Source: an uncultured Lachnospiraceae bacterium
GTDB taxonomy: Bacteria; Bacillota; Clostridia; Lachnospirales; Lachnospiraceae
Direction: 5' to 3'
Assembly (NCBI GenBank): GCA_947177925.1
Contig: CAMWWJ010000001.1
Span: 1 to 40,095, forward strand
DNA: 40,095 nt
Part shown: positions 1,904 to 14,504 of the stretch, piece after piece
Layout: every line of letters begins with the position of its first letter
Position numbering within the stretch: the first letter of the stretch is position 1
The notes under the pieces: generated by a model
What the model was told of the DNA's origin: nothing
Databases searched by the model: none
The model's input: the letters and a program-made list of their open reading frames with translations, nothing else
Translations under genes and position numbers: made by a program

Positions 1904-2674
1904 ATGGAGATGTTGACACAGTTTTCAAGGACAGAATTATTGCTTGGAAAAGAGGCGATGGAAAAATTATCCGGTTCAAAAGTTGCAATTTTTGGTATTG
2001 GCGGTGTAGGAGGATATGCCTGTGAAGCTCTTGTACGAAGTGGAGTTGGGGCATTTGATTTGATTGATGATGATAAGGTCTGTCTGACGAATCTGAATCG
2101 GCAGATTATAGCTACGCGAAAAACAGTAGGAAAATATAAGGCAGAAGTGATGAAAGAGAGGATACTTGAAATCAATCCAGATGCAGATGTAATCATACAT
2201 AAGAGTTTTTTCCTGCCTGAAAATGCAGATGAATTTCCTTTTGACGAATATGATTATATTGTGGATGCAGTAGATACGGTTACTGCTAAAATTGAACTTG
2301 TTATGAAGGCGCAGGAAAAAAATATACCTATTATCAGCAGTATGGGAGCCGGGAACAAATTAGATGGCAGCCAGTTTAAGGTTGCTGATATTTATAAAAC
2401 AAAAGTATGTCCTTTGGCGAAAGTCATGCGGAGGGAATTGAAAAAACGTGGTATAGAGAAATTAAAGGTTGTGTATTCGGAAGAAAAACCTACAAGACCA
2501 TTGGAGGATATGGCTATCAGCTGCAGGACAAACTGTATTTGTCCGCCCGGAGCAAAACATAAGTGTACAGAAAGAAGAGATATTCCGGGCAGCGTGGCAT
2601 TTGTGCCATCTGTGGCAGGATTGATTCTTGCAGGTGAAGTAGTAAAAGACCTGTGTAGGGTAGAAATGGGGTAG
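1904..2674 (+). CDS. tcdA: ThiF/HesA-family tRNA threonylcarbamoyladenosine dehydratase (TcdA/CsdL-like)
   Basis: N-terminal GIGGVGGYACEALVRSGVGAFDLIDDDKVCLTNLNRQ dinucleotide fold typical of TcdA. GAGGAG RBS upstream. Confidence 0.75.
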   Translation: MEMLTQFSRTELLLGKEAMEKLSGSKVAIFGIGGVGGYACEALVRSGVGAFDLIDDDKVCLTNLNRQIIATRKTVGKYKAEVMKERILEINPDADVIIHKSFFLPENADEFPFDEYDYIVDAVDTVTAKIELVMKAQEKNIPIISSMGAGNKLDGSQFKVADIYKTKVCPLAKVMRRELKKRGIEKLKVVYSEEKPTRPLEDMAISCRTNCICPPGAKHKCTERRDIPGSVAFVPSVAGLILAGEVVKDLCRVEMG

Positions 2675-2681
2675 CATTGAT

Positions 2682-3812
2682 ATGGGTATTTCCGTGAAAG
2701 AACTAAAGGAGCTGGATGAAAGTAGTTATCAAATCATAGATATTCGTGATCAGATAGAGATTACTCATGGATCAATAGCAGGCGCTGTTGCAATAAAGCC
2801 GGAAGAAATTGAGAACAGCGAAAAAATAGATGTTTCTAAGAAGCTAATTATTTGTTGCAGCAGGGGCAAATTCAGTAATGAGGTAGCAGAGGATTTAAGG
2901 CAGAGGGGACTTAATGCGGAAAGTCTTGAAGGTGGATATATTGCATGGATTATGGATATTATGAGTGAGCCGCAGGAACTAAATAAGGCAAAAGATGTGG
3001 AGCAAAGCCTGCGAAAAAAATTCAAAAAGACAATCTGGTCGAGATTTACTAAGGCGATTAACACTTATGAATTAGTAAAACCAGAGGATGTTATAGCAGT
3101 TTGTATTTCTGGTGGAAAAGACTCCATGCTTATGGCAAAATGTTTTCAGGAACTAAAACTACATAATAAGTTTGATTTTGAGGTAAAGTTCCTTGTAATG
3201 GACCCAAGGTACAGTGCAGAGAATCGTAAAGTAATTGAAGAAAATGCAAAGAACCTGAATGTACCGATTACTGTATTTGAAACGGATATTTTTGATTCTG
3301 TATATCATGTGGAGAAATCACCCTGCTATCTATGTGCCAGAATGAGGAGGGGATATCTGTATCATTTCGCACAGGAATTAGGGTGCAATAAAATTGCATT
3401 GGGGCACCACTATGATGATGTGATTGAAACGATTCTCATGGGAATGCTTTATGGTGCACAGATACAGACAATGATGCCCAAGCTTCACAGCACAAATTTT
3501 GAAGGTATGGAACTGATACGTCCTTTGTATTTGGTCAGAGAAGATGATATCAAGGCATGGAGGGACTACAATGAACTTCATTTCATTCAGTGTGCCTGCA
3601 AGTTTACCGATACTTGCAGCACTTGTAATAATGAGGAAAACCGTTCCAAGAGAGTAGAAATAAAAGAACTGATAAAAACATTAAAGCAGGGAAATCCATA
3701 TGTGGAGGGAAATATTTTCAAGAGCGTGGAAAATGTGAATTTGGACACAGTAGTTGCGTACAAACAAAACGGTGAGAAACATTATTTTCTGGAAGGATAT
3801 GACAAGGAATGA
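2682..3812 (+). CDS. ttcA: rhodanese domain fused to a TtcA-type tRNA 2-thiocytidine PP-loop ATPase
   Basis: The N-terminal ~95 aa form a rhodanese domain with active-site loop CCSRGKFS. It is followed by the SGGKDS PP-loop, CYLCARMRRG and a later CAC/CSTC Cys cluster, as in Fe-S TtcA. Confidence 0.75.
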   Translation: MGISVKELKELDESSYQIIDIRDQIEITHGSIAGAVAIKPEEIENSEKIDVSKKLIICCSRGKFSNEVAEDLRQRGLNAESLEGGYIAWIMDIMSEPQELNKAKDVEQSLRKKFKKTIWSRFTKAINTYELVKPEDVIAVCISGGKDSMLMAKCFQELKLHNKFDFEVKFLVMDPRYSAENRKVIEENAKNLNVPITVFETDIFDSVYHVEKSPCYLCARMRRGYLYHFAQELGCNKIALGHHYDDVIETILMGMLYGAQIQTMMPKLHSTNFEGMELIRPLYLVREDDIKAWRDYNELHFIQCACKFTDTCSTCNNEENRSKRVEIKELIKTLKQGNPYVEGNIFKSVENVNLDTVVAYKQNGEKHYFLEGYDKE

Positions 3813-4534
3813 GCGATGGGAAAAGAAATAGCAGGCAAGTGATGAAAGATGCCTTCCTGAAATCCATTCCCATCATGTGCAGTTATCTGTTTGTAAGCAT
3901 GGCATATGGAATGATGATGGAAAATGCTGGATATCATTGGTATTATTCGTTCTTGGCAAGTATGACTATTTACACAGGTGCGTTTCAATTCGTGCTGATA
4001 ACTTTTTTGAGCAGTGGTGCATCCGTTATAACAATTATGATAACAGCGTTTTTGATGAACAGCAGACAGGCATTTTACAGTCTCTCCTTTTTAGACGTTT
4101 TTCGGGATATGGGAAAAAGAAAGTTGTATATGATTCACACCATGACAGATGAAACCTATGCGGTAAATTGTTCCATAGGCAATACAGAAAGTAAGAAAGA
4201 TATTATGTTTTTTGTAGCGATTTTCAGCAGGTGCTATTGGATGATTGGCGCTGTATTAGGCGGTGTGATTGGGCAGTTGCTTCCTTTTCTGATATTCAGA
4301 AATGACAATGACATCCCGGATATGATAAAACGGTTAGGAGAGATATTGCCGTCGGCTATCATGGCAATATTGATTGTTTACTGCTTAAAAGACGCAGGGA
4401 ATAACTTTATAGCAGATGGAATATGGAGATTGGTAGCGGTCTTGATTGTAGTGGTAAGTTATAAATGGAAACATAGCACTTTACTTAGTATTCTATTAGG
4501 AACAGTAAGCTATATGCTATTATTACATATTTAA
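3809..4534 (+). CDS. azlC: AzlC-family branched-chain amino acid permease whose C-terminus resembles AzlD (hybrid)
   Basis: The first ~165 aa look like AzlC (FLKSIPI..., MTDETYAV). After GQLLPF the sequence (LIFRNDNDIP...LGEILPSAIMAILIVYCLKD...WKHSTLLSILLGTVSYMLL) reads like the C-terminal two thirds of AzlD. Confidence 0.6.
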   Translation: MSDGKRNSRQVMKDAFLKSIPIMCSYLFVSMAYGMMMENAGYHWYYSFLASMTIYTGAFQFVLITFLSSGASVITIMITAFLMNSRQAFYSLSFLDVFRDMGKRKLYMIHTMTDETYAVNCSIGNTESKKDIMFFVAIFSRCYWMIGAVLGGVIGQLLPFLIFRNDNDIPDMIKRLGEILPSAIMAILIVYCLKDAGNNFIADGIWRLVAVLIVVVSYKWKHSTLLSILLGTVSYMLLLHI

Positions 4535-4550
4535 GATTGGAGATTTTGAT

Positions 4551-5375
4551 ATGGAACAGATAACAAGAGAACAGATGGAGAAATTAGAACATTTAAGAAG
4601 TTATTTAAAGAAACTGCATTCCGTAGCAGTGGCTTTTTCCAGTGGTGTGGACTCAACTTTTTTATTGAAGGTTGCCGCCGGTACATTGGGGGATAAAGTA
4701 ATTGCCGTGACAGCGAAATCCTGTTCTTTTCCAAAGCGGGAATTAAATGAGGCAGCATCGTTCTGTGAAAAGGAAGGAATCAGGCATTATGTGTGCGAAT
4801 CAGAAGAATTAAACATTGAAGGGTTTGCACAAAATCCAAAAAACCGCTGTTATCTTTGTAAAAAAGAACTTTTTGAAAAAATTCAAGTGATTGCTGATGA
4901 AAACCAGATGGAAAATATAGTTGAAGGCTCTAATCTGGACGATAATGGTGACTATCGCCCCGGACTTTTAGCAGTGGCAGAGCTTGGAATTAAGAGTCCG
5001 TTAAGGGAATGCCATTTAACAAAAGCGGATATCCGGGCATTGTCAAAATATCTGGAACTGCCGACATGGGAGAAACAATCTTTCGCATGTCTTTCCTCAC
5101 GTTTTGTGTATGGAGAAACGATTACAGAAGAAAAACTGGGTATGGTGGATAAAGCGGAGCAGCTTCTGCTGGATATGGGATTTCATCAGGTCCGAGTGCG
5201 CATTCACGGCAGGATGGCAAGGATTGAAATTGAGCCGGAAGAGTTTGGAAAGCTTATGGAGGAAAGAGCCAGAAATATAATTATAGAAAAGTTCAAGGAC
5301 TATGGATTTTCGTATATCTCAATGGATTTGATGGGATATCGAACAGGGAGTATGAATGAAACGCTTGATTTATAG
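4551..5375 (+). CDS. larE: LarE-like PP-loop ATP pyrophosphatase / sulfur transferase (copy 1)
   Basis: FSSGVDST PP-loop, CYLC (CxxC) plus ACLSSRF Cys, and a C-terminal ARIEIEPEE...MDLMGYRTGSMN typical of TIGR00268-type proteins. Confidence 0.7.
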   Translation: MEQITREQMEKLEHLRSYLKKLHSVAVAFSSGVDSTFLLKVAAGTLGDKVIAVTAKSCSFPKRELNEAASFCEKEGIRHYVCESEELNIEGFAQNPKNRCYLCKKELFEKIQVIADENQMENIVEGSNLDDNGDYRPGLLAVAELGIKSPLRECHLTKADIRALSKYLELPTWEKQSFACLSSRFVYGETITEEKLGMVDKAEQLLLDMGFHQVRVRIHGRMARIEIEPEEFGKLMEERARNIIIEKFKDYGFSYISMDLMGYRTGSMNETLDL

Positions 5376-5401
5376 CAATCGGGATCTGCAAGGAGGAACT
5401 T

Positions 5402-5722
5402 ATGAGAGAAAGAAAAATAGTATCATTGCTAATAATCGTAATAAACGTCATGGGAGTTATTTGTCTAATTTATTTTGCTATTCCATACCTTACTCATAGT
5501 GTTACGATATCATATCCTAATGCAATGTTACCTGCTGAGGCATGGGATAGAGCGGGCATGATATTGACGTTTGGCTTTGTTCCGCTTTTGATAGCGAATT
5601 TGTTAGGTCTTGTATTTATAAAAATAGAATTGAAGTTTATAAAATTCCTATTTCTGATTCCGAGCGTGACATGTTTTATTATAGTGGTAAGCTATTGGAT
5701 AACATCATTGACGTACGAATAG
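5402..5722 (+). CDS. small integral membrane protein, unknown function
   Basis: 106 aa with three or four hydrophobic spans. GGAGG RBS upstream. Confidence 0.5.
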   Translation: MRERKIVSLLIIVINVMGVICLIYFAIPYLTHSVTISYPNAMLPAEAWDRAGMILTFGFVPLLIANLLGLVFIKIELKFIKFLFLIPSVTCFIIVVSYWITSLTYE

Positions 5723-5766
5723 AAAATTCCAGTTTGCAGCTAAAAATTAAAAAGGTGTAAATGAAG

Positions 5767-5790
5767 AAGCAGCTATCTGGCTGCTTTTTG
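5767..5790 (+). terminator. rho-independent terminator
   Basis: AAGCAGC/GCTGCTT stem, 6-nt loop, followed by TTTG. Confidence 0.6.
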
Positions 5791-5908
5791 TATTGTTAAA
5801 AGCTATAACCATCTAAAGGAAAAAAGAATTATGCAAAAGTTGTCTTTGGTAGTATAGTATATAAAGTATATTTACATACTATATTGATAGGAATAATAGG
5901 AGAATGAA

Positions 5909-6820
5909 ATGACATTAGTTCAATTAAAATATGCGATTACGGTAGCAGGGCAGAATTCATTGAATGATGCAGCAAAGGTACTTTTTATATCTCAGCCAAG
6001 CCTTTCCTCGGCAATCCGCTCATTGGAGAACGAGGTAGGGTTTGATATATTCATACGGTCTAAAAATGGGATTACTTTGACAACAAAGGGCGCAGAATTT
6101 ATTGGATATGCAAAATCCGTGATGGAACAGTATGAGCTATTAGACGCAAAATATATTTCACACACAGAGGTAAAAAAGACATTCAGCGTATCTATGCAGC
6201 ATTACACGTTTGCGGTAAATGCATTTGTAGAACTTGTGAAGCAGTATGGAATGGATGAGTATGAATTTGAAGTGCATGAGACAAAAACCCATGAAGTCAT
6301 TGAGAATGTCAAGAACCGCAAAAGCGAAATCGGCATTCTATATCTGAATGATTTTAACAGGAATGTATTAAATAAGTTGTTTGCGGAGTATGAACTACAG
6401 TTTGAGCCATTGCTGGAATGCGGTGTATATGTATATATGTGGAAAGGGCATCCGCTGGCAGAAAGGGATGAAATAGCATTAGAGGAGCTGGATGAGTACC
6501 CATGCCTTGGATTTGCACAAGGGGAGCACAATTCTTTCTACTTTGCAGAAGAGGTTTTAAGTACCTACCAGTATAAAAGATTCATCCGTGCCAATGATAG
6601 GGCTACTTTGTTAAATCTTATGGTTGGATTGAACGGATATACTTTATGCTCTGGTATTTTATGTGAAGAACTGAATGGAAAGGATTATTGTGCCGTAAAA
6701 CTGAAATCAGATGAAAAGATGACGATCGGATATATTTCAAGGAAAGACGCACCAGTCAGTGCGATAGGACAGAAATATCTGGAGGAAATGGCAAAATATA
6801 AGGATAAATCTTTAGGTTGA
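5909..6820 (+). CDS. LysR-family transcriptional regulator (paralog of 18847..19752)
   Basis: N-terminal wHTH MTLVQLKYAITVAGQNSLNDAAKVLFISQPSLSSAIRSLE. The C-terminal substrate-binding domain is alignable with the second LysR in the window. Confidence 0.85.
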   Translation: MTLVQLKYAITVAGQNSLNDAAKVLFISQPSLSSAIRSLENEVGFDIFIRSKNGITLTTKGAEFIGYAKSVMEQYELLDAKYISHTEVKKTFSVSMQHYTFAVNAFVELVKQYGMDEYEFEVHETKTHEVIENVKNRKSEIGILYLNDFNRNVLNKLFAEYELQFEPLLECGVYVYMWKGHPLAERDEIALEELDEYPCLGFAQGEHNSFYFAEEVLSTYQYKRFIRANDRATLLNLMVGLNGYTLCSGILCEELNGKDYCAVKLKSDEKMTIGYISRKDAPVSAIGQKYLEEMAKYKDKSLG

Positions 6821-6835
6821 TCAGGAGGAATTATT

Positions 6836-8002
6836 ATGGCAAGAGGAATTGAAACAAAATGTCTGCATTTGGAAGAAGAAGAGGGATGCAGCAGCAATTA
6901 TGGGGCTGTGAGCTATCCGATTTACCAGACAGCAACCTATGCACATTTGGGCGTGGGTAAAAGCACAGGATATGATTACAGCAGGTTGCAGAACCCTACA
7001 AGGGAGCATTTGGAAAAGGTGGTGGCAACGCTGGAAAATGGATTAGATGCATTGGCATTTTCAACAGGGATGGCAGCAATTACTTTGATGATGGAGCTGT
7101 TTCATCCGGGGGACCATCTGATTGTGGATGCAGACCTTTATGGGGGGAGCATAAGGCTTTTTCATAATGTATCAGAGAAAAACGGAATTACATTCTCAAG
7201 TATTGACTGCTATAAAGAAGATGTGGAAAGTTATATTAGTGAAAATACGAAGGCAATTTACATTGAGACACCCACCAATCCCATGATGAATGTGACAGAT
7301 ATAGAGGCGATTGGGGAGATAGCAAAAAAGCATAATTTGCTTTTGATCGTTGACAATACTTTCCTTTCGCCTTATTTTCAGAATCCGTTGGATTTAGGTG
7401 CGGATATTGTTGTACATAGCGGGACGAAATATCTTGGCGGCCATAATGATACGCTGGCAGGTTTTCTGGTGACAAACAGGGAGGATATCAGTGAGAAGTT
7501 CCGGTTTTTAATTAAGACGACAGGATCAGGGCTTGCACCGTTTGACAGCTGGCTCATTCTTCGTGGAATTAAGACACTTGGCATCCGTATGGAGAAGTCA
7601 CAGCAAAATGCGGCAGCCATTGCAAATTGGTTAAAACAGCAAAATGCAGTGACGAAGGTAATCTATCCGGGACTGCCTACGCATCCGGGATATGAAATTA
7701 TGAAAAAGCAGGCAAGAGGATTTGGAGCGATGCTTACATTCCAGCTTGAAAGCAGAGAATTTGCATTGGCGATTTTAGAGAAAGTCCGTATGATCAAGTT
7801 TGCAGAAAGTCTTGGAGGTGTAGAAACGCTGATTACTTATCCGACAACACAGACACATGCGGATGTGCCAAAAGAAATCAGGGAAAAAAATGGGATTACA
7901 GAAAGCACACTCAGGCTTTCTGTTGGAATTGAGGATGTAAAGGATTTGCTGAATGAACTGGACAGCATTTTTAAGGAGATAGAAGGTGAATTACATGGCT
8001 GA
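6836..8002 (+). CDS. Cys/Met-metabolism PLP enzyme (cystathionine gamma-synthase / gamma-lyase / beta-lyase family)
   Basis: YSRLQNPTR motif and the PLP-lysine motif HSGTKYLGGHND. Length is 388 aa. Confidence 0.85.
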   Translation: MARGIETKCLHLEEEEGCSSNYGAVSYPIYQTATYAHLGVGKSTGYDYSRLQNPTREHLEKVVATLENGLDALAFSTGMAAITLMMELFHPGDHLIVDADLYGGSIRLFHNVSEKNGITFSSIDCYKEDVESYISENTKAIYIETPTNPMMNVTDIEAIGEIAKKHNLLLIVDNTFLSPYFQNPLDLGADIVVHSGTKYLGGHNDTLAGFLVTNREDISEKFRFLIKTTGSGLAPFDSWLILRGIKTLGIRMEKSQQNAAAIANWLKQQNAVTKVIYPGLPTHPGYEIMKKQARGFGAMLTFQLESREFALAILEKVRMIKFAESLGGVETLITYPTTQTHADVPKEIREKNGITESTLRLSVGIEDVKDLLNELDSIFKEIEGELHG

Positions 8003-9176
8003 AAGAAATCTTGATTTTAACAGGATTATAAACAGAAGAGGTACAAGAAGCCTGAAATATGATTTTGCAAAAAGGCGTGGAATGCCGGAAGATGTACTGC
8101 CGTTGTGGGTGGCGGATATGGATTTTGAAACTTCTTCTTATATCGAGGATGCCTTGATAGAGCGGGCAAGGCATGGAATCTTTGGATACAGTGAGGTCCA
8201 GAAACCATATTTTGAGATTATAAGGGCATGGATGAAGAGGCATCATGACTGGGAAGTACAGGAAAAATGGCTGGTAAAAACACCAGGGGTTGTATTTGCA
8301 CTGGCAATGGCAGTAAAGGCATATACAAAACCGGGAGACGGCGTGCTGATCCAATTACCGGTATATTACCCATTTTCAGAAGTGATAGAAGACAATGGGA
8401 GAAAAGTGGTAAGCAACACGTTATATCTGGGGGAGGATAATCGTTATCATATTGATTTTGACGATTTTGAAAAAAAGATTACGGAGGAAAAGATTAAGCT
8501 GTTTTTCTTATGCAATCCGCACAATCCGGTGGGAAGAGTCTGGACAAGGGAGGAGCTGACCAAGTTGGGTGATATCTGTGTGAAGCAACATGTCATTGTG
8601 GTCAGTGATGAAATCCATCAGGATTTTGTATTTAAAGGAAAACATCTTGTCTTTGCAAATCTGAAAAAAGAATATGAGGATATCAGCATTGTCTGTACCT
8701 CACCAAGTAAGACCTTTAACCTCGCCAGTATGATGATGTCAAACATTTTTATTCCGAACCGTGATTTAAAGCATAGGTTCCGTAAGGAATTGGATGCTGC
8801 AGGCACGAGCCAGCTCGGCGTTATGGGGCTTGTTGCATGTGAAGCCGCATACAGTAAGGGGGAGGAGTGGTATCAGGCAATGCTCTCCTATGTGGCAGAT
8901 AACATAGCGTTTACCAAAAGATATGTGGAAGCAAATCTGCATGGTGTACGCATGGTAGAACATGAGGGAACCTACCTTGTCTGGCTTGATTTCAGGGAGA
9001 CCGGACTTAGTACAGATGAACTGGAGAAACTGATGGTACATAAGGCAAAGCTGTGGCTTGACAGTGGAAAAATATTTGGGGAGAGTGGAAGAGGATTTCA
9101 GAGAATCAATGTCGCCTGTCCCCGGAGTGTGCTGTCAGAAGCATTGGAAAGAATCAGAAAAGCAATACAGGAATAG
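7986..9176 (+). CDS. patB: PatB/MalY-type C-S lyase (class I/II aminotransferase fold, cystathionine beta-lyase)
   Basis: NRRGTRSLKYD N-terminal signature and the SPSKTFNLAS PLP-lysine motif. It overlaps the upstream gene by 17 nt. Confidence 0.8.
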   Translation: MNYMAERNLDFNRIINRRGTRSLKYDFAKRRGMPEDVLPLWVADMDFETSSYIEDALIERARHGIFGYSEVQKPYFEIIRAWMKRHHDWEVQEKWLVKTPGVVFALAMAVKAYTKPGDGVLIQLPVYYPFSEVIEDNGRKVVSNTLYLGEDNRYHIDFDDFEKKITEEKIKLFFLCNPHNPVGRVWTREELTKLGDICVKQHVIVVSDEIHQDFVFKGKHLVFANLKKEYEDISIVCTSPSKTFNLASMMMSNIFIPNRDLKHRFRKELDAAGTSQLGVMGLVACEAAYSKGEEWYQAMLSYVADNIAFTKRYVEANLHGVRMVEHEGTYLVWLDFRETGLSTDELEKLMVHKAKLWLDSGKIFGESGRGFQRINVACPRSVLSEALERIRKAIQE

Positions 9177-9191
9177 AGAGGCAGATTTGCA

Positions 9192-10460
9192 ATGTTACAT
9201 ATAGAAAATCATGATGTGAAAGAACATATTTTAGAAGGAAATTTTGGACTGGAGAAGGAAAGCTTAAGGATAAAAAAAGACGGCACGTTATCCCATTCAC
9301 CCCATCCATTTACGGATGATACGCATATTGTAAAGGACTTCTGTGAAAATCAAACGGAAATTAACACATCGGTACATACCAGTGCAAAAGATGCGGTTGA
9401 AGAACTTGAATTTCACAACAGGCGCATTTATGAAAGATTAGGAAGTCTGCCGGAAAGAGAATACCTTTGGCTGTTTTCCAATCCACCTTATATTCAAAAT
9501 GAAAGTGATATACCAGTTGCGGTTTTTGAAGGGACCCATGTGTCAAAAACAGCATACAGGGAGTATTTATCTACAAAATACGGACGGTATAAAATGACGT
9601 TTTCCGGCATCCATGTAAATTATTCCTTTTCTGAGAAACTGCTGAAAGCTAATTTTAGTTATCAAAAGGAGACGGATTATCAAGAATACAAAAACAAGTT
9701 TTATTTGGAACTTGCACAGAGAATGGCTGCATATGGCTGGCTGCTTGTGGCAGTGACTGCGGCAAGTCCGCTTCTGGACAGCTCATTTGTAGAGAAAGGC
9801 ATTTGCAATCAGGATGTGTTTACGGGAATGGCATCAGTAAGATGCGGTGAAATGGGATATTGGAACGAGTTTGCGCCTATTCTGGATTATCATAATATTT
9901 CCGCATATGCAGACAGTATACGAAAATATGTGGATATGGGGTTATTGAAGGCAGCTTCTGAACTGTATTATCCAATACGGTTAAAGCCGGCAGGAGAAAA
10001 TAACTTAGAGTCGTTGTGCCGAAATGGCGTCAATCATATAGAGCTGCGCATGTTTGATTTAAATCCTCTTGTAAGCGCCGGTGTGGAGGAAAAGGATATT
10101 ATCTTTGCACAGCTTTTAATGGTCTGGCTTGCTGCAACCCCAAGTCAGCCATTCAGCGAAAAGGACCAGATTCAGGCAGTGCAGAATTTTAAGAATGCCG
10201 CCCGGTACGATTTAAAGACAGTCAATATATTGACACCAGATGGAGAATTATATTCTGTAGCCCATGCAGCCTTAAAAGTAATTGATATGATGAAAGAGTT
10301 CTACGGCGGACTTTCGTTAGATGTGGATGAAATCCTACAGTTTGAATATGAAAAATTTACAGATGCAGATAACAGGTATGCGTGGAGAATCAGAAAACAA
10401 TTTGGAGATGGATTTGTAAAAAAAGGGTTGGAGCTTGTAAAGGAAAGGCAGGGGGAATAA
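9192..10460 (+). CDS. gshA: glutamate--cysteine ligase (stand-alone, no glutathione synthetase domain)
   Basis: GLEKESLRI and SGIHVNYSF motifs of the GshA/GshF N-terminal domain. At 422 aa there is no ATP-grasp extension. Confidence 0.75.
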   Translation: MLHIENHDVKEHILEGNFGLEKESLRIKKDGTLSHSPHPFTDDTHIVKDFCENQTEINTSVHTSAKDAVEELEFHNRRIYERLGSLPEREYLWLFSNPPYIQNESDIPVAVFEGTHVSKTAYREYLSTKYGRYKMTFSGIHVNYSFSEKLLKANFSYQKETDYQEYKNKFYLELAQRMAAYGWLLVAVTAASPLLDSSFVEKGICNQDVFTGMASVRCGEMGYWNEFAPILDYHNISAYADSIRKYVDMGLLKAASELYYPIRLKPAGENNLESLCRNGVNHIELRMFDLNPLVSAGVEEKDIIFAQLLMVWLAATPSQPFSEKDQIQAVQNFKNAARYDLKTVNILTPDGELYSVAHAALKVIDMMKEFYGGLSLDVDEILQFEYEKFTDADNRYAWRIRKQFGDGFVKKGLELVKERQGE

Positions 10461-10577
10461 ATGTGTGAATTGTTTGGCGTAACCTCCCATGGCAAGCTGG
10501 AATTAAATGAGCTTCTTTTGGAATTTAAGAATATGTCAGGTTCATTCCAACCCATAGACAATATCTATCATGTGTAA
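10461..10577 (+). pseudogene. remnant of a class II (Ntn) glutamine amidotransferase
   Basis: The ORF starts MCELFGVTSHG..., the Cys2 nucleophile signature of YafJ/EgtC-like GATases. It stops after 38 codons, where full-length proteins have more than 200 aa. Confidence 0.5.
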
Positions 10578-10612
10578 AAGGAATAATCTATTACCTTGAT
10601 TAAGAAAATCTA

Positions 10613-10641
10613 TTGACAAGATAAATATGGAAAAGTATAAT
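10613..10641 (+). promoter_or_regulatory. consensus sigmaA promoter (TTGACA-N17-TATAAT)
   Basis: TTGACA at 10613-10618 and TATAAT at 10636-10641 with an exact 17-nt spacer. Confidence 0.7.
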
Positions 10642-10663
10642 TTGTAGCATAGAACAAAACCTA

Positions 10664-10690
10664 TAAAACCTATTAGGTAAATAGGAATTA
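10664..10690 (+). promoter_or_regulatory. CymR-like (Rrf2) operator candidate
   Basis: TAAAACCTATTAGGTAAATAGGAATTA matches the B. subtilis CymR box as I recall it (TAAWNCNNANTWNANNNATMGGAATTW) at all specified positions except one. Confidence 0.45.
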
Positions 10691-10707
10691 AGAAAGGAGC
10701 AATTCAT

Positions 10708-10803
10708 ATGAAAACAAATAATATGGTAACGAACAGAAGAAATAATAATTGTTGTTGCTGTCAGACTGTATATACGAATACGGTTTACTTTTCATGTGTA
10801 TGA
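10708..10803 (+). CDS. leader peptide ORF with a four-Cys run (MKTNNMVTNRRNNNCCCCQTVYTNTVYFSCV)
   Basis: AAAGGAG RBS 8 nt upstream of the ATG. Codons TGT TGT TGC TGT occupy 10750-10761. The ORF sits between the consensus promoter and cysK. Confidence 0.55.
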   Translation: MKTNNMVTNRRNNNCCCCQTVYTNTVYFSCV

Positions 10804-10832
10804 TGCACCCGGCTTACTAAGCACAAAGCTGG

Positions 10833-10865
10833 CAGTTGTCATAAGCACATGGCAGCTGTTTTTTT
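10833..10865 (+). terminator. weak terminator/attenuator hairpin with a 7-T run
   Basis: CAGTTG/CAGCTG stem (one G-U pair; alternative register AGCTGGC/GGCAGCT) directly followed by TTTTTTT at 10859-10865. It is flanked by the direct repeats TAAGCACA...GGCAG. Confidence 0.4.
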
Positions 10866-10927
10866 ATGAACTTGAAGGATGTTAGCAGAGCTATCAAACA
10901 AATATTAATTTTATGGAGGTAATCATT

Positions 10928-11866
10928 ATGAGTCAGATTAAAGAAAGTGCGCTGGAGTTAATCGGAAAAACCCCAATACTGAAACTGAACGGGTATGCGA
11001 AGAAAGCAGGCGCAGCAGATGCTACAATTCTTGCAAAGCTGGAATATTTCAATCCGGCGGGTTCCGTGAAGGATCGTATTGCATTGGCAATGATTGAGGA
11101 TGCGGAAAAGAAAGGTCTTTTAAAAGAGGGAGCAACCATTATTGAGCCTACCAGCGGGAATACCGGAATCGGTCTTGCTGCTGTTGCAGCGGCAAAAGGA
11201 TACCGGGCAATCCTTACCCTGCCGGATACCATGAGCGTTGAGAGGAGAAATCTTTTAAAGGCATATGGTGCAGAGCTGGTGCTCACAGAAGGGGCCAAAG
11301 GAATGAAGGGGGCTATTGCAAAAGCAGAGGAGCTTTCTAAGGAAATTGACGGAGCAATTATCTTAGGACAGTTTGTGAATCCGGCGAACCCTGCAGTGCA
11401 TAAGGCTACAACAGGACCGGAAATCTGGGAACAGACAGAGGGAAAGGTTGACATTTTTGTTGCTGGTGTAGGAACAGGCGGAACCATCACAGGTGTTGGC
11501 GAATTTTTAAAAGAAAAGAATCCGGATGTAAAAATTGTGGCAGTTGAGCCGGCGGGAAGCCCTGTTTTGTCAAAGGGAACTTCGGGGGCACATAAGATTC
11601 AGGGAATTGGTGCAGGATTTGTTCCAGAAGTACTCAATACAGAAGTGTATGATGAAATTATTACGATTGAGAATGAGGATGCATTTGCAGAAGGCAAGGC
11701 ATTTGCAGTGAGTGAAGGAATCCTTGTGGGAATCTCTTCCGGCGCTGCGCTTAAGGCAGCAGTGATTCTTGCGAACAGACCGGAAAATAAAGGAAAGACG
11801 ATTGTAGCATTACTTCCTGACTCTGGCGACAGATATTTGTCTACTCCATTATTCAATAATAATTAG
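10928..11866 (+). CDS. cysK: O-acetylserine sulfhydrylase (cysteine synthase A), canonical type
   Basis: SVKDRIA PLP lysine, [10 protein letters not shown] and [10 protein letters not shown] motifs. The start is moved to the ATG at 10928, 8 nt after GGAGG. Confidence 0.9.
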
Positions 11867-11984
11867 GAAACGCTGATGAAAGCGTTTCCCGCACCGGATT
11901 TGCGCTGCATGGCAGCATGATTCCGTTGCAAATCCGTGTGCATACGAAGCAGACAGATTTTGTCCGGATTGGAGGCGGATGTGA

Positions 11985-12143
11985 ATGAAAGAAACAGAAA
12001 GTAAGCAGGTTTTGGATAGTTCGCATTTAGGCACTCTTGAAGAACTGTTAAGTGATATGAAATATGGAAGCATCACACTTATTATTCAGGATGGTAAAAT
12101 TGTCCAAATAGATAAAACTGAAAAATATAGAATAAAAGACTGA
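11985..12143 (+). CDS. yezD: YezD-family small protein (DUF2292)
   Basis: 52-aa ORF with the core YGSITLIIQDGKIVQIDKTEKYRI typical of YezD. GGAGG lies 9 nt upstream. It is too short for the ORF track. Confidence 0.65.
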   Translation: MKETESKQVLDSSHLGTLEELLSDMKYGSITLIIQDGKIVQIDKTEKYRIKD

Positions 12144-12151
12144 CTGGAAAA

Positions 12152-12197
12152 CCAGAGGTTTTGTTAAAAAGATTAACAGACCTCTGGCTTTTTCTTT
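12152..12197 (+). terminator. rho-independent terminator after yezD
   Basis: CCAGAGGT/ACCTCTGG 8-bp stem followed by CTTTTTCTTT. Confidence 0.7.
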
Positions 12198-12223
12198 ATA
12201 AATCGTTGTAGTTCCACAATCAG

Positions 12224-12293
12224 GATGCTGTAGCCGTTGGAATGGCATAGGTTTGCAAAACTGAAGTTGGCGGTTCGAATCCGCCCAGTATCA
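12224..12293 (+). tRNA. tRNA-Cys(GCA)-like element, atypical and possibly a pseudo-tRNA or tRNA-derived
   Basis: Manual cloverleaf. The acceptor stem GATGCTG/CAGTATC has one G-U pair. The D stem is GCCG/TGGC. The anticodon loop is TTGCAAA. The T arm GGCGG-TTCGAAT-CCGCC is perfect. Deviations are an A28-G42 mismatch, U14, an A73 discriminator and no encoded CCA. Confidence 0.5.
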
Positions 12294-12333
12294 TTCAGTA
12301 ACGCTTCGGATTCAGGGTAAACCATGACAAACT

Positions 12334-12349
12334 ATATTTTGCATAATAT
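12334..12349. promoter_or_regulatory. near-perfect 16-bp palindrome, candidate regulator (LysR-type) site upstream of the nif-like operon
   Basis: ATATTTTG/CATAATAT has 7 of 8 symmetric positions. It lies 46-61 nt upstream of the NifB-like start. A TATTAT -10 candidate at 12371-12376 has a poor -35. Confidence 0.25.
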
Positions 12350-12394
12350 TTTCTGTTCTGAATCGTTACATATTATAGTGAAAGAAGGTGTAGT

Positions 12395-13267
12395 ATGAGC
12401 AATACATATCAGGACTTGCAAAACTCCCATCCGTGTTTTGGCGGTCATAAAAATAATGTGGGACGGATTCATCTTCCGGTTAGTCCGGGATGTAACATTG
12501 CCTGCCGTTTTTGTGACAGGGTGATCAATGATGTGGAAGAACGGCCGGGAGTGACCTCGAAAGTGATAACGCCTGATGAAAGTCTGGAAGTTCTGGAAAA
12601 AGCTTTATCCATTTGTCCGGAAATCACAGTTGCCGGCATTGCGGGACCGGGAGATACACTTGCTACGGATTATGCCTTGGAGACTTTCCGGAAGGTAAAA
12701 GAAAAATTCCCGAAGCTCATCAAATGTATGAGCACAAACGGGCTGCTTTTGTATGAAAAGGCGGATGAAGTGATTGATATAGGAATTGACTCCCTGACGG
12801 TTACAGTGAATGCGGTAAAACCGGAGATCCTCGCAAAGCTGAATAAATACATTATTTATCATGGCAGAAGATATGAGGGCATAGAAGGGGCAGAAATTCT
12901 CATAGAGAATCAGTTAAAAGGCATCAAAAAAGTTGCGGCTGCCGGTATCACAATAAAGATAAATACGGTACTTGTTCCAGAAATTAATGGCGGGCATATA
13001 GAAGAAATTGCAAGAACCGTAAAAGAGGCAGGTGCAAGCATTTATAATATTATTCCCCTGATTCCGCAGTATGAACTGGCTGACCAGAAAGCACCTGTCT
13101 GTTCCCAGATTGATGAGGCAAGAACAAAAGCCTCTAAGTATATAGATGTATTCAGGCATTGCCAGCACTGCAGGGCCGATGCGGTGGGTGTTCCGGGAAA
13201 ATCGGAGTACGGTGATCAGATTTACCAAAGAAGATTAAATGTAAAGGAAACATTTTCGCATGGATAA
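12395..13267 (+). CDS. NifB-type radical SAM protein (catalytic domain only)
   Basis: HPCF...HLPVSPGCNIACRFCDR provides the CxxxCxxC motif. The C-terminal HCQHCRADAVGVPG resembles the NifB CRADAVG signature. Length is 290 aa. Confidence 0.8.
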   Translation: MSNTYQDLQNSHPCFGGHKNNVGRIHLPVSPGCNIACRFCDRVINDVEERPGVTSKVITPDESLEVLEKALSICPEITVAGIAGPGDTLATDYALETFRKVKEKFPKLIKCMSTNGLLLYEKADEVIDIGIDSLTVTVNAVKPEILAKLNKYIIYHGRRYEGIEGAEILIENQLKGIKKVAAAGITIKINTVLVPEINGGHIEEIARTVKEAGASIYNIIPLIPQYELADQKAPVCSQIDEARTKASKYIDVFRHCQHCRADAVGVPGKSEYGDQIYQRRLNVKETFSHG

Positions 13268-13640
13268 ATCCGCAAATAAACAATTAGAAGAAAGGGTATA
13301 TAAAGTGGCTGCTGCCTCTAGTGATGGAATTGTCATAAACCAGCATTTTGGAAGGGCGGATACATTTTATATATATGAAGTGGCGGGAGCAGGCAATTAT
13401 AGATTTCTTGAAACAAGAACAGTTACACCTGTATGTAACGGGGGGAATCACAGTGATAAGGAACTCCGTGATAATATCAGCAAATTCAAGGACTGCAAAT
13501 ACATATTAGTCAGCAGGATAGGAATGGGCGCTGCGAATATGGTGGAACAGTCCGGCATTACACCAATGGAGCTGCCGGGAATGATGGAAGAGTCACTGGA
13601 TAAGTTAATTACATATGAACAATTACAAAATTTATTTTGA
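13260..13640 (+). CDS. NifX/NafY/NifB-C-terminal-type small domain protein (dinitrogenase FeMo-cofactor-binding fold)
   Basis: VAAASSDGIVINQHFGRADTFYIYEV matches the family signature. It is translationally coupled to the upstream gene (ATGGATAA overlap). Confidence 0.7.
   Translation: MDKSANKQLEERVYKVAAASSDGIVINQHFGRADTFYIYEVAGAGNYRFLETRTVTPVCNGGNHSDKELRDNISKFKDCKYILVSRIGMGAANMVEQSGITPMELPGMMEESLDKLITYEQLQNLF

Positions 13641-14504
<864 letters not shown>

Follow-up and report, generated by a model that had tools for sequence, protein, structure and literature searches.

The control region of cysK in a 40,095-nucleotide (nt) stretch of DNA from an uncultured Lachnospiraceae bacterium (contig CAMWWJ010000001.1, positions 1 to 40,095; hereafter the window, meaning this whole stretch) is probably a leader-peptide transcription attenuator that responds to cysteine and is stacked on a repressor site, the best explanation that sequence and comparison offered us. 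The region occupies 10613-10927, and the gene behind it can be named confidently as cysteine synthase A, as its product scores 448.9 bits against NCBIfam TIGR01139 (cutoff 351). An earlier note, written from the letters of the DNA, had claimed a ribosome-mediated attenuator here that senses charged tRNA-Cys. We found that claim supported by a conserved open reading frame (ORF) with its Shine-Dalgarno (SD) sequence, cysteine (Cys) codon run, terminator and operator-like box, by covariation in the terminator, and by the association of the leader with cysK or Rrf2 genes.

All the elements that had been listed for this region, namely the promoter, the ribosome-binding site, the 31-codon ORF, the CCCC run, the fifth Cys codon, the repeats and the 7-T run, were present in their places (Table 1). 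TTGACA-N17-TATAAT is the sole 12/12 promoter match within 10000-12500, and transcription is predicted to start near 10648-10650. The operator-like box follows the -10 element and precedes the leader SD. The fifth Cys codon of the leader ORF is 10795-10797; a direct repeat, TAAGCACA, stands at 10818-10825 and 10842-10849, and GGCAG recurs at 10831-10835 and 10851-10855. As a whole, the 286-nt leader folds with z = -2.65 relative to shuffled sequences.

We propose that transcription would begin at the consensus promoter and that a ribosome would load on the 31-codon leader ORF. The segment r2, the 5' strand of a putative antiterminator, holds the stop codon of this ORF, so that a terminating ribosome would block the antiterminator and a ribosome stalled at the Cys run would leave r2 free. 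When Cys-tRNA(Cys) is plentiful, the ribosome would reach the UGA at 10801-10803 and cover r2, leaving the 3' strand, r3, without a partner; the terminator (10831-10860 plus U7) would then form, and transcription would stop before cysK. If instead Cys-tRNA(Cys) runs short, translation would stall at 10750-10761, no less than 30 nt ahead of r2. A ribosome halted there, the Cys run in its A site, would cover the RNA roughly to 10775, and r2, which begins at 10792, would stay free to pair with r3; the resulting long antiterminator hairpin would consume the terminator 5' arm and loop and allow readthrough into cysK. If no ribosome loads, a segment around the start codon, r0, would sequester r2 and make termination the default. 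An Rrf2-family (CymR-type) repressor at the box would provide a second input, at initiation or early elongation.

To score the named helices, we used an alignment of 50 homologues and 500 shuffles. The terminator and the P1 hairpin, which lies just 3' of the Cys run, were together paired in 97.8% of cells, compared with 34-46% for slid controls. For the terminator alone, 96.3% of cells were paired and five pairs had changed on both sides; none of the 500 shuffles reached the observed values. P1 was paired in 99.6% of cells, with one-sided changes only, and was partly fixed by the pattern used in the metagenome search described below; it is possibly a pause or spacer hairpin. RNAalifold independently predicted both the P1 and the terminator helices.

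Where the earlier note had left open which helices exclude one another, folding gave an answer: a predicted antiterminator (r2 at 10792-10814 with r3 at 10828-10852) against the terminator at 10831-10860. The r2:r3 duplex was computed at -21.4 kcal/mol versus -14.2 kcal/mol for the terminator hairpin, with z = -3.15 against shuffles. The small hairpin P2 forms the tip of the antiterminator hairpin and is also kept in the terminator state. In constrained folding of the window leader, the probability of the terminator was 0.19 with a ribosome stalled at the last Cys codon and queued ribosomes upstream, 0.98 with a ribosome at the stop codon and 0.97 in free RNA; without a ribosome, the minimum-energy folds have a multibranched "off" structure closed by r0:r2. 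This was the clearest computed antiterminator/terminator switch among the homologues examined. An unbiased sliding scan then asked which upstream segment pairs best with the 5' arm of the terminator. Relative to the stop codon, this segment lay at -22 to +4 nt in 7 of 8 diverse leaders and at -6 to -22 nt in 16 of 17 family variants.

The leader belongs to a conserved family. CysK, used as a probe, led to 80 loci on contigs from one genome per species, mostly of Lachnospiraceae and other Clostridia; L-numbers such as L001 are our labels for the loci compared. We defined a small-ORF (sORF) signature as an SD plus ATG and at most 60 codons including CCC, in the 400 nt upstream of cysK on the sense strand. 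We found this signature in 7 of 78 related genomes, against an expected count of 0.04 (P ~2e-14); 821 kb of control sequence contained it a single time. Bare TGYTGYTGY was weakly enriched upstream of cysK (nine loci versus four expected, P = 0.02), because Cys-codon triplets are common in any frame; the full signature was the decisive one. Diverged leaders were recognised in Lacrimispora (L030 and L042, nhmmer E = 4e-7 and 2e-6).

We then scanned metagenomes with a pattern built on P1 and its surroundings, TGTCANRCNGTATN{5,14}AYNGTYTNNTTTTC, in which the last codon of the Cys run is the only one of that run to be fixed. At least 120 stretches matched. Among the matches listed, eight were chance matches without any other feature, and the others (~110) were all homologous leaders with three to five consecutive Cys codons directly upstream of the pattern; four of these leaders read CCCRC. 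In the full copies of this listed set, the ORF was intact in 110/110, an SD was present in 108/110, and the ATG stood 13-18 codons from the Cys run. The first long ORF after the leader encoded CysK in ~80 of the listed loci. The run itself varied by synonymous TGT/TGC changes and by insertion or deletion of whole codons. Between lineages, the N-terminal half of the leader peptide was constant in length and unlike in sequence, and in the aligned homologues most changes in the C-terminal half were nonsynonymous and preserved the RNA pairs, which argues for a constraint on the RNA and on codon identity rather than on the peptide. All leader lineages kept the order promoter, box, ORF, terminator, and each had a promoter of 11-12/12 at the same relative place. 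The earlier note had suggested comparing relatives for the ORF and its Cys run, and this comparison bore it out: the family is conserved in the same order across many lineages, and its terminator covaries.

Several observations weigh against the attenuator as proposed. The antiterminator was 88% paired in the same alignment, and nearly all of this reflects sequence conservation. Its one compensatory pair, with a G:U intermediate, is not above shuffles (CATGTGT:GCACATG in the window, CATGTGT:GCATATG in L124 and L151, CATATGC:GCATATG in L115, L140 and L171). Similarly, r0:r2 was 82.6% paired across the 50 homologues with no covariation, and r2 contains the fifth Cys codon. Homologues other than the window favoured the terminator in every ribosome state at equilibrium, so that the switch in them must be kinetic. 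A kinetic decision is usual for attenuators; equilibrium folds with ribosome masks are uninformative for it, and we used truncated-transcript folding and sliding duplex scans instead. As to the repressor, the Rrf2 protein of the window (27415-27852) scored 125.5 bits against CymR (cutoff 195) and 130.2 against IscR (cutoff 207.6), and has three clustered Cys ligands, as IscR-like proteins typically do. L001 and L002, whose CysK is the most similar (95% and 94% identity), retain promoter and box and have lost the leader: at L001:1015-1277 and L002:2741-3003 there is no leader ORF or terminator, and short remnants (TTGTCATA.. and CTGCTGTCA..) are left. By this comparison, deletion accounts for the loss of the attenuator between close relatives, and the leader is dispensable. 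Finally, several lineages allow a pairing of the Cys-codon segment with the terminator arms (about -13 to -17 kcal/mol), which taken alone would give the opposite logic.

This last pairing is the starting point of an alternative that we consider improbable, in which the attenuator has another logic, with the Cys-codon segment (GCTGTCAG) as the antiterminator strand, or acts at another level, by translational control, as the validated mycobacterial polycysteine sORF does (10.1101/834739). The earlier note had paired GCTGTCAG over the Cys codons with CTGGCAGT at 10830-10837. That pairing is real, but at about -13 kcal/mol it ranks second among the partners of the terminator arm, and the stop-proximal partner is both stronger and consistently placed. 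Termination on stalling would moreover turn cysteine synthesis off during cysteine shortage, which makes no physiological sense. Translational control is disfavoured by the position of the cysK SD, which lies ~55 nt beyond the U-run and in no conserved helix.

It is also very unlikely that the small ORF encodes a functional Cys-rich peptide, metal- or redox-active or the precursor of a modified peptide, that merely sits beside cysK and that the run serves. Lineages do resemble one another in the C-terminal half, CCCQ[TA]V..TVYFSYA, and for some copies a hypothetical-protein annotation exists, but the N-terminal half is conserved in length only, the C-terminal changes are mostly those that alter residues while keeping base pairs, and the number of Cys residues varies from three to five. 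A peptide of this kind would likewise not account for the covarying terminator between the ORF and cysK, or for an association that is specific to cysK or Rrf2 genes.

We give equally little weight to a translation-independent RNA switch, responsive to a metabolite, tRNA or protein ligand, in which the ORF and its Cys codons would be incidental. P1 and its flanks are highly conserved at the nucleotide level, and in most homologues the terminator is favoured at equilibrium whatever the ribosome mask, as such a switch would have it; against it, SD and ATG are kept in 108/110 copies among the matches listed, with the frame always open, and the run changes by whole codons or by synonymous exchange of TGT and TGC. 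Nor did the leader match any Rfam family, T-box and SAM included (no match at E <= 10 across 9800-12500; tRNA-Cys was the only match at the gathering threshold in the window), and Rfam returned no T-box or SAM (S-box) element at the window cysK or at 20 related cysK loci.

That the repressor site alone matters here and the leader is a remnant on its way out, as the relatives with 94-95% identical CysK that deleted the leader and kept promoter and box might suggest, is hard to square with a window in which all parts are intact and the computed switch is the clearest, and with near-identical leaders on independent metagenome contigs (L099, L115, L124, L151), and we hold it to be a slim prospect.

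Table 1. Features of the cysK control region in the window, and leader peptides at related loci
Feature	Position or locus	Strand	Remarks
Promoter, sigma-A/sigma-70 type	TTGACA 10613-10618, 17-nt spacer, TATAAT 10636-10641	+	12/12 consensus
Operator-like box, candidate Rrf2/CymR-type site	10664-10690		core CCTA 10669-10672, N9, TAGG 10682-10685
Shine-Dalgarno of leader ORF, AAAGGAG	10693-10699	+	ATG 8 nt further on, at 10708
r0, start-codon segment, CATATGAAAA	10705-10714	+	complementary to TTTTCATGTG, 10789-10798, overlapping r2
Leader ORF, 31 codons, MKTNNMVTNRRNNNCCCCQTVYTNTVYFSCV	10708-10803	+	stop TGA 10801-10803
Four Cys codons, TGT TGT TGC TGT	10750-10761	+	proposed ribosome stall site if Cys-tRNA(Cys) is scarce
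P1 hairpin, just 3' of Cys run: AGACTGTAT, 6-nt loop, ATACGGTTT	10763-10786	+	
r2, putative 5' strand of antiterminator	10792-10814	+	holds last ORF codons and stop TGA
P2, small hairpin: CCGGCTT, 10-nt loop, AAGCTGG	10809-10832	+	10809-10815 paired with 10826-10832
r3, putative 3' strand of antiterminator	10828-10852	+	overlaps terminator 5' arm and loop
Intrinsic terminator	10831-10865	+	12-bp stem (10831-10842 with 10849-10860), 6-nt loop, U7 10859-10865
cysK (O-acetylserine sulfhydrylase / cysteine synthase A), regulated gene	10928-11866	+	SD GGAGG 10916-10920
Leader peptide MNKATVSNNQNFTMCCCHAVCMSTVYFSYALCT	L006		upstream of cysK
Leader peptide ..MMCCCQTVWNMVFFSYA	L008		upstream of cysK
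Leader peptide ..NNKCCCQAVYME..	L030, L042 (Lacrimispora)		upstream of cysK
More dissimilar Cys-run peptides	L016, L035, L043, L064		upstream of cysK

We next consider the second proposed input. In the 40-kb window, AAACCTA-N9-TAGGAAT is matched perfectly only once. Of 79 related genomes, ~28 carry CCTA-N6-12-TAGG in the 600 nt before cysK, with a spacer that is nearly always 9 and with AAACCTA..TAGGAAT as the usual form; by our own estimate, chance would give ~0.01 per locus, that is, fewer than one over the 79 genomes. Where the leader is absent, the box usually lies 40-110 nt from cysK. Every lineage with the leader has the box placed after a near-perfect promoter and ahead of the leader SD, also before the Rrf2 gene in the group related to Clostridium sp. 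L2-50 (group B). This conservation upstream of cysK makes the box a candidate operator of a cysteine regulon, most likely a site for an Rrf2-family (CymR-type) repressor. Compared with the presumed Bacillus subtilis CymR consensus, TAAWNCN2ANTWNAN3ATMGGAATTW, it agrees at 17 of 18 specified positions. The earlier note had called it a CymR box; the box holds up as a conserved candidate operator, but its assignment goes no further than "Rrf2/CymR-type", given that the Rrf2 protein of the window falls below the CymR cutoff.

That protein is the only Rrf2 in the window. Its gene is followed by a NifS-like cysteine desulfurase gene (27415-29080), an order seen in iscR-iscS and presumably also that of cymR-yrvO in B. 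subtilis. Neither a Cys-run ORF nor the box was present in the 270-nt region upstream of the window Rrf2 gene. A search for a second operator in the 40-kb window returned only weak matches with two to three mismatches, no more than expected by chance; at that chance-level stringency, the box-like AAACATATAGGTTTACTAGGAAA at 1807-1829 (two mismatches) stands 75 nt upstream of a ThiF/TcdA-like ORF that begins at 1904.

In the Clostridium sp. L2-50-type lineage, the leader is followed by a gene for an Rrf2-family regulator with a C-x7-C-x5-C motif and not by cysK, which suggests, from the arrangement of the genes, cysteine-dependent autoregulation of that regulator. Both CysK and Rrf2 regulators act in cysteine or Fe-S metabolism, which fits a cysteine signal. 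L084, L098, L127, L131 and related loci (for example L127:2155-2958) have the leader MTYENSKINRKYDMGMCCCCCQTVWMNTVYFSYA and the box before the Rrf2 gene.

Beyond the alignable family, sequence-dissimilar Cys-rich ORFs precede cysK in other Clostridia (L016:2862-2921, L017:62-172, L035:2808-2885, L043:2802-2906 and L064:2790-2864), with peptides such as MQNKKMTMRCCCRCCSTYE, MKRMNKYCDREMMCCCSCMEKCKYV and MYGMMCCCQQSSCCGG.., and terminators follow most of them. L035, L043 and L064 have dissimilar Cys-run leaders with terminators. Judged by these sequences, the Cys-leader principle appears to be broader than a single alignable family.

The window cysK stands in a sulfur and Fe-S neighbourhood (1904-10460 and 12395-14504). 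Its genes encode ThiF/TcdA-like, rhodanese and PP-loop ATPase, LarE-like, LysR regulator and Cys/Met-metabolism pyridoxal-phosphate (PLP) enzyme proteins, together with a PatB C-S lyase, glutamate-cysteine ligase, CysK itself and NifB-like and NifH-like proteins. A 38-codon ORF at 10461-10577 (MCELFGVTSHGKLELNELLLEFKNMSG..) begins directly at the glutamate-cysteine ligase stop; we take it to resemble an N-terminal fragment of a class II glutamine amidotransferase, and it may be a gene remnant. A 52-residue YezD/OscA-like ORF lies at 11985-12143, and a tRNA-Cys (GCA) gene at 12224-12293, ~360 nt downstream of cysK. Between cysK and tRNA-Cys there is a long hairpin with a T-run at 12151-12186, in which a possible promoter, TTAACA (12173), N18, TATAAA (12197), read by eye, is embedded. 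Linkage of cysK to tRNA-Cys recurs in several genera (L099, L140, L083, L085, L001, L176 and probably L022).

It is conceivable, if rather unlikely, that the same leader and operator form a wider Lachnospiraceae cysteine circuit that takes in cysK, the Rrf2 gene in some species and the tRNA-Cys downstream of cysK. If so, a device that reads charged tRNA-Cys would set the supply of both the amino acid and its own ligand, tRNA-Cys, and with the repressor it would make a two-input gate for metabolite level and tRNA charging.

The interest of the family lies in its unexpected phylum, in its abundance in major gut commensals and in the absence of annotation. It is abundant in prominent human-gut Lachnospiraceae of the Roseburia inulinivorans and Clostridium sp. 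L2-50 types. An exact look-up found two of the leader peptides in public protein sets, only as uncharacterised or hypothetical proteins, and these annotated copies belong to Roseburia inulinivorans and Clostridium sp. L2-50. Its leaders are gained and lost between close relatives. The family offers a compact model of two-level cysteine sensing in gut anaerobes, a natural case of a repressor on an attenuator and a possible cysteine-responsive genetic part for Clostridia.

In the textbook view, CymR, T-boxes and S-boxes control the cysteine genes of Firmicutes, and leader-peptide attenuation has been seen as mainly proteobacterial and actinobacterial. The earlier note held that polycysteine attenuators were not known in Clostridia, and our searches of the full-text literature agree, as they brought up no paper on a Cys leader-peptide attenuator from Firmicutes. 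We conclude that this is probably a previously undescribed family of terminator/antiterminator cysteine attenuators, with no Rfam model, that extends a known leader-peptide principle.

Among known Cys-codon leaders, Cys-run leader ORFs have been predicted before actinobacterial cys operons, without terminators (PMC1262725). The mycobacterial polycysteine sORFs, Ms5788A and its relatives, have been validated as leaderless, translational attenuators, and their authors knew in 2020 of no earlier uORF-mediated (upstream-ORF) attenuation for cysteine (10.1101/834739). They resemble the leader described here in that consecutive Cys codons in an upstream sORF sense cysteine and control cysteine-related genes. 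The mycobacterial type has a leaderless mRNA and no intrinsic terminator, and its Cys tract base-pairs with the SD of the gene that follows (10.1101/834739). Here, in contrast, the sORF has its own SD, a 5' untranslated region of ~60 nt and a covarying terminator; the -10 element ends at 10641, an SD and then the ATG at 10708 follow, and the conserved helices leave the cysK SD out. Tandem Cys codons and a terminator also go together in uORFC-8-2, a motif that precedes cysS in Rhodobacterales and is predicted to act as a ribosome-mediated transcription attenuator (PMC8632094). By that published description, on which alone our comparison is based, it differs in its host (Alphaproteobacteria), its gene (cysS), its two Cys codons inside the first stem and the lack of a reported repressor box (PMC8632094), and as far as we can judge it is unrelated in sequence.

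Within Clostridium, cysteine genes have been described under T-box, S-box and CymR control (PMC2566862, PMC2940859, PMC3828012). Cys-specific T-boxes and S-boxes are described for Clostridium acetobutylicum and C. perfringens (PMC2566862, PMC2940859), and for C. acetobutylicum CymR sites have also been predicted (PMC3828012). Like the Cys T-boxes and S-boxes, the cysK leader would choose between termination and antitermination in front of a cysteine gene, and it shares with the T-box the tRNA(Cys) charging signal. Unlike in a T-box, sensing would go through the translating ribosome and not through direct tRNA-RNA contact; neither a regex search of related loci nor Rfam in 20 relatives found a T-box. 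With the CymR operators of Bacillus and Staphylococcus, the box shares an A/T-rich site ending in ..TAGGAAT(T) in the cysK promoter region, and, as in the CymR regulon, an Rrf2 gene adjoins a cysteine desulfurase gene in the same genome. It differs from them in that the binding protein is a predicted one and in that the site is combined with an attenuator.

The classical leader-peptide attenuators are those of trp, his, leu, thr and pheA in Escherichia coli and Salmonella, with which the cysK leader has no sequence or Rfam relationship. The arrangement is nonetheless theirs: an SD and an open ORF with tandem codons for the amino acid of the controlled pathway, here Cys, an intrinsic terminator before a biosynthetic gene, and a computed, mutually exclusive, stop-proximal antiterminator that overlaps the terminator and would be blocked by a ribosome at the stop codon, with the default-off state held by an upstream pairing partner. 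Unlike in the classical cases, r2 would be sequestered by the start-codon region r0 and not by the region of the regulatory codons, the amino acid sensed would be cysteine, the host is a Clostridium-class Firmicute, and a repressor-type box lies inside the transcribed leader.

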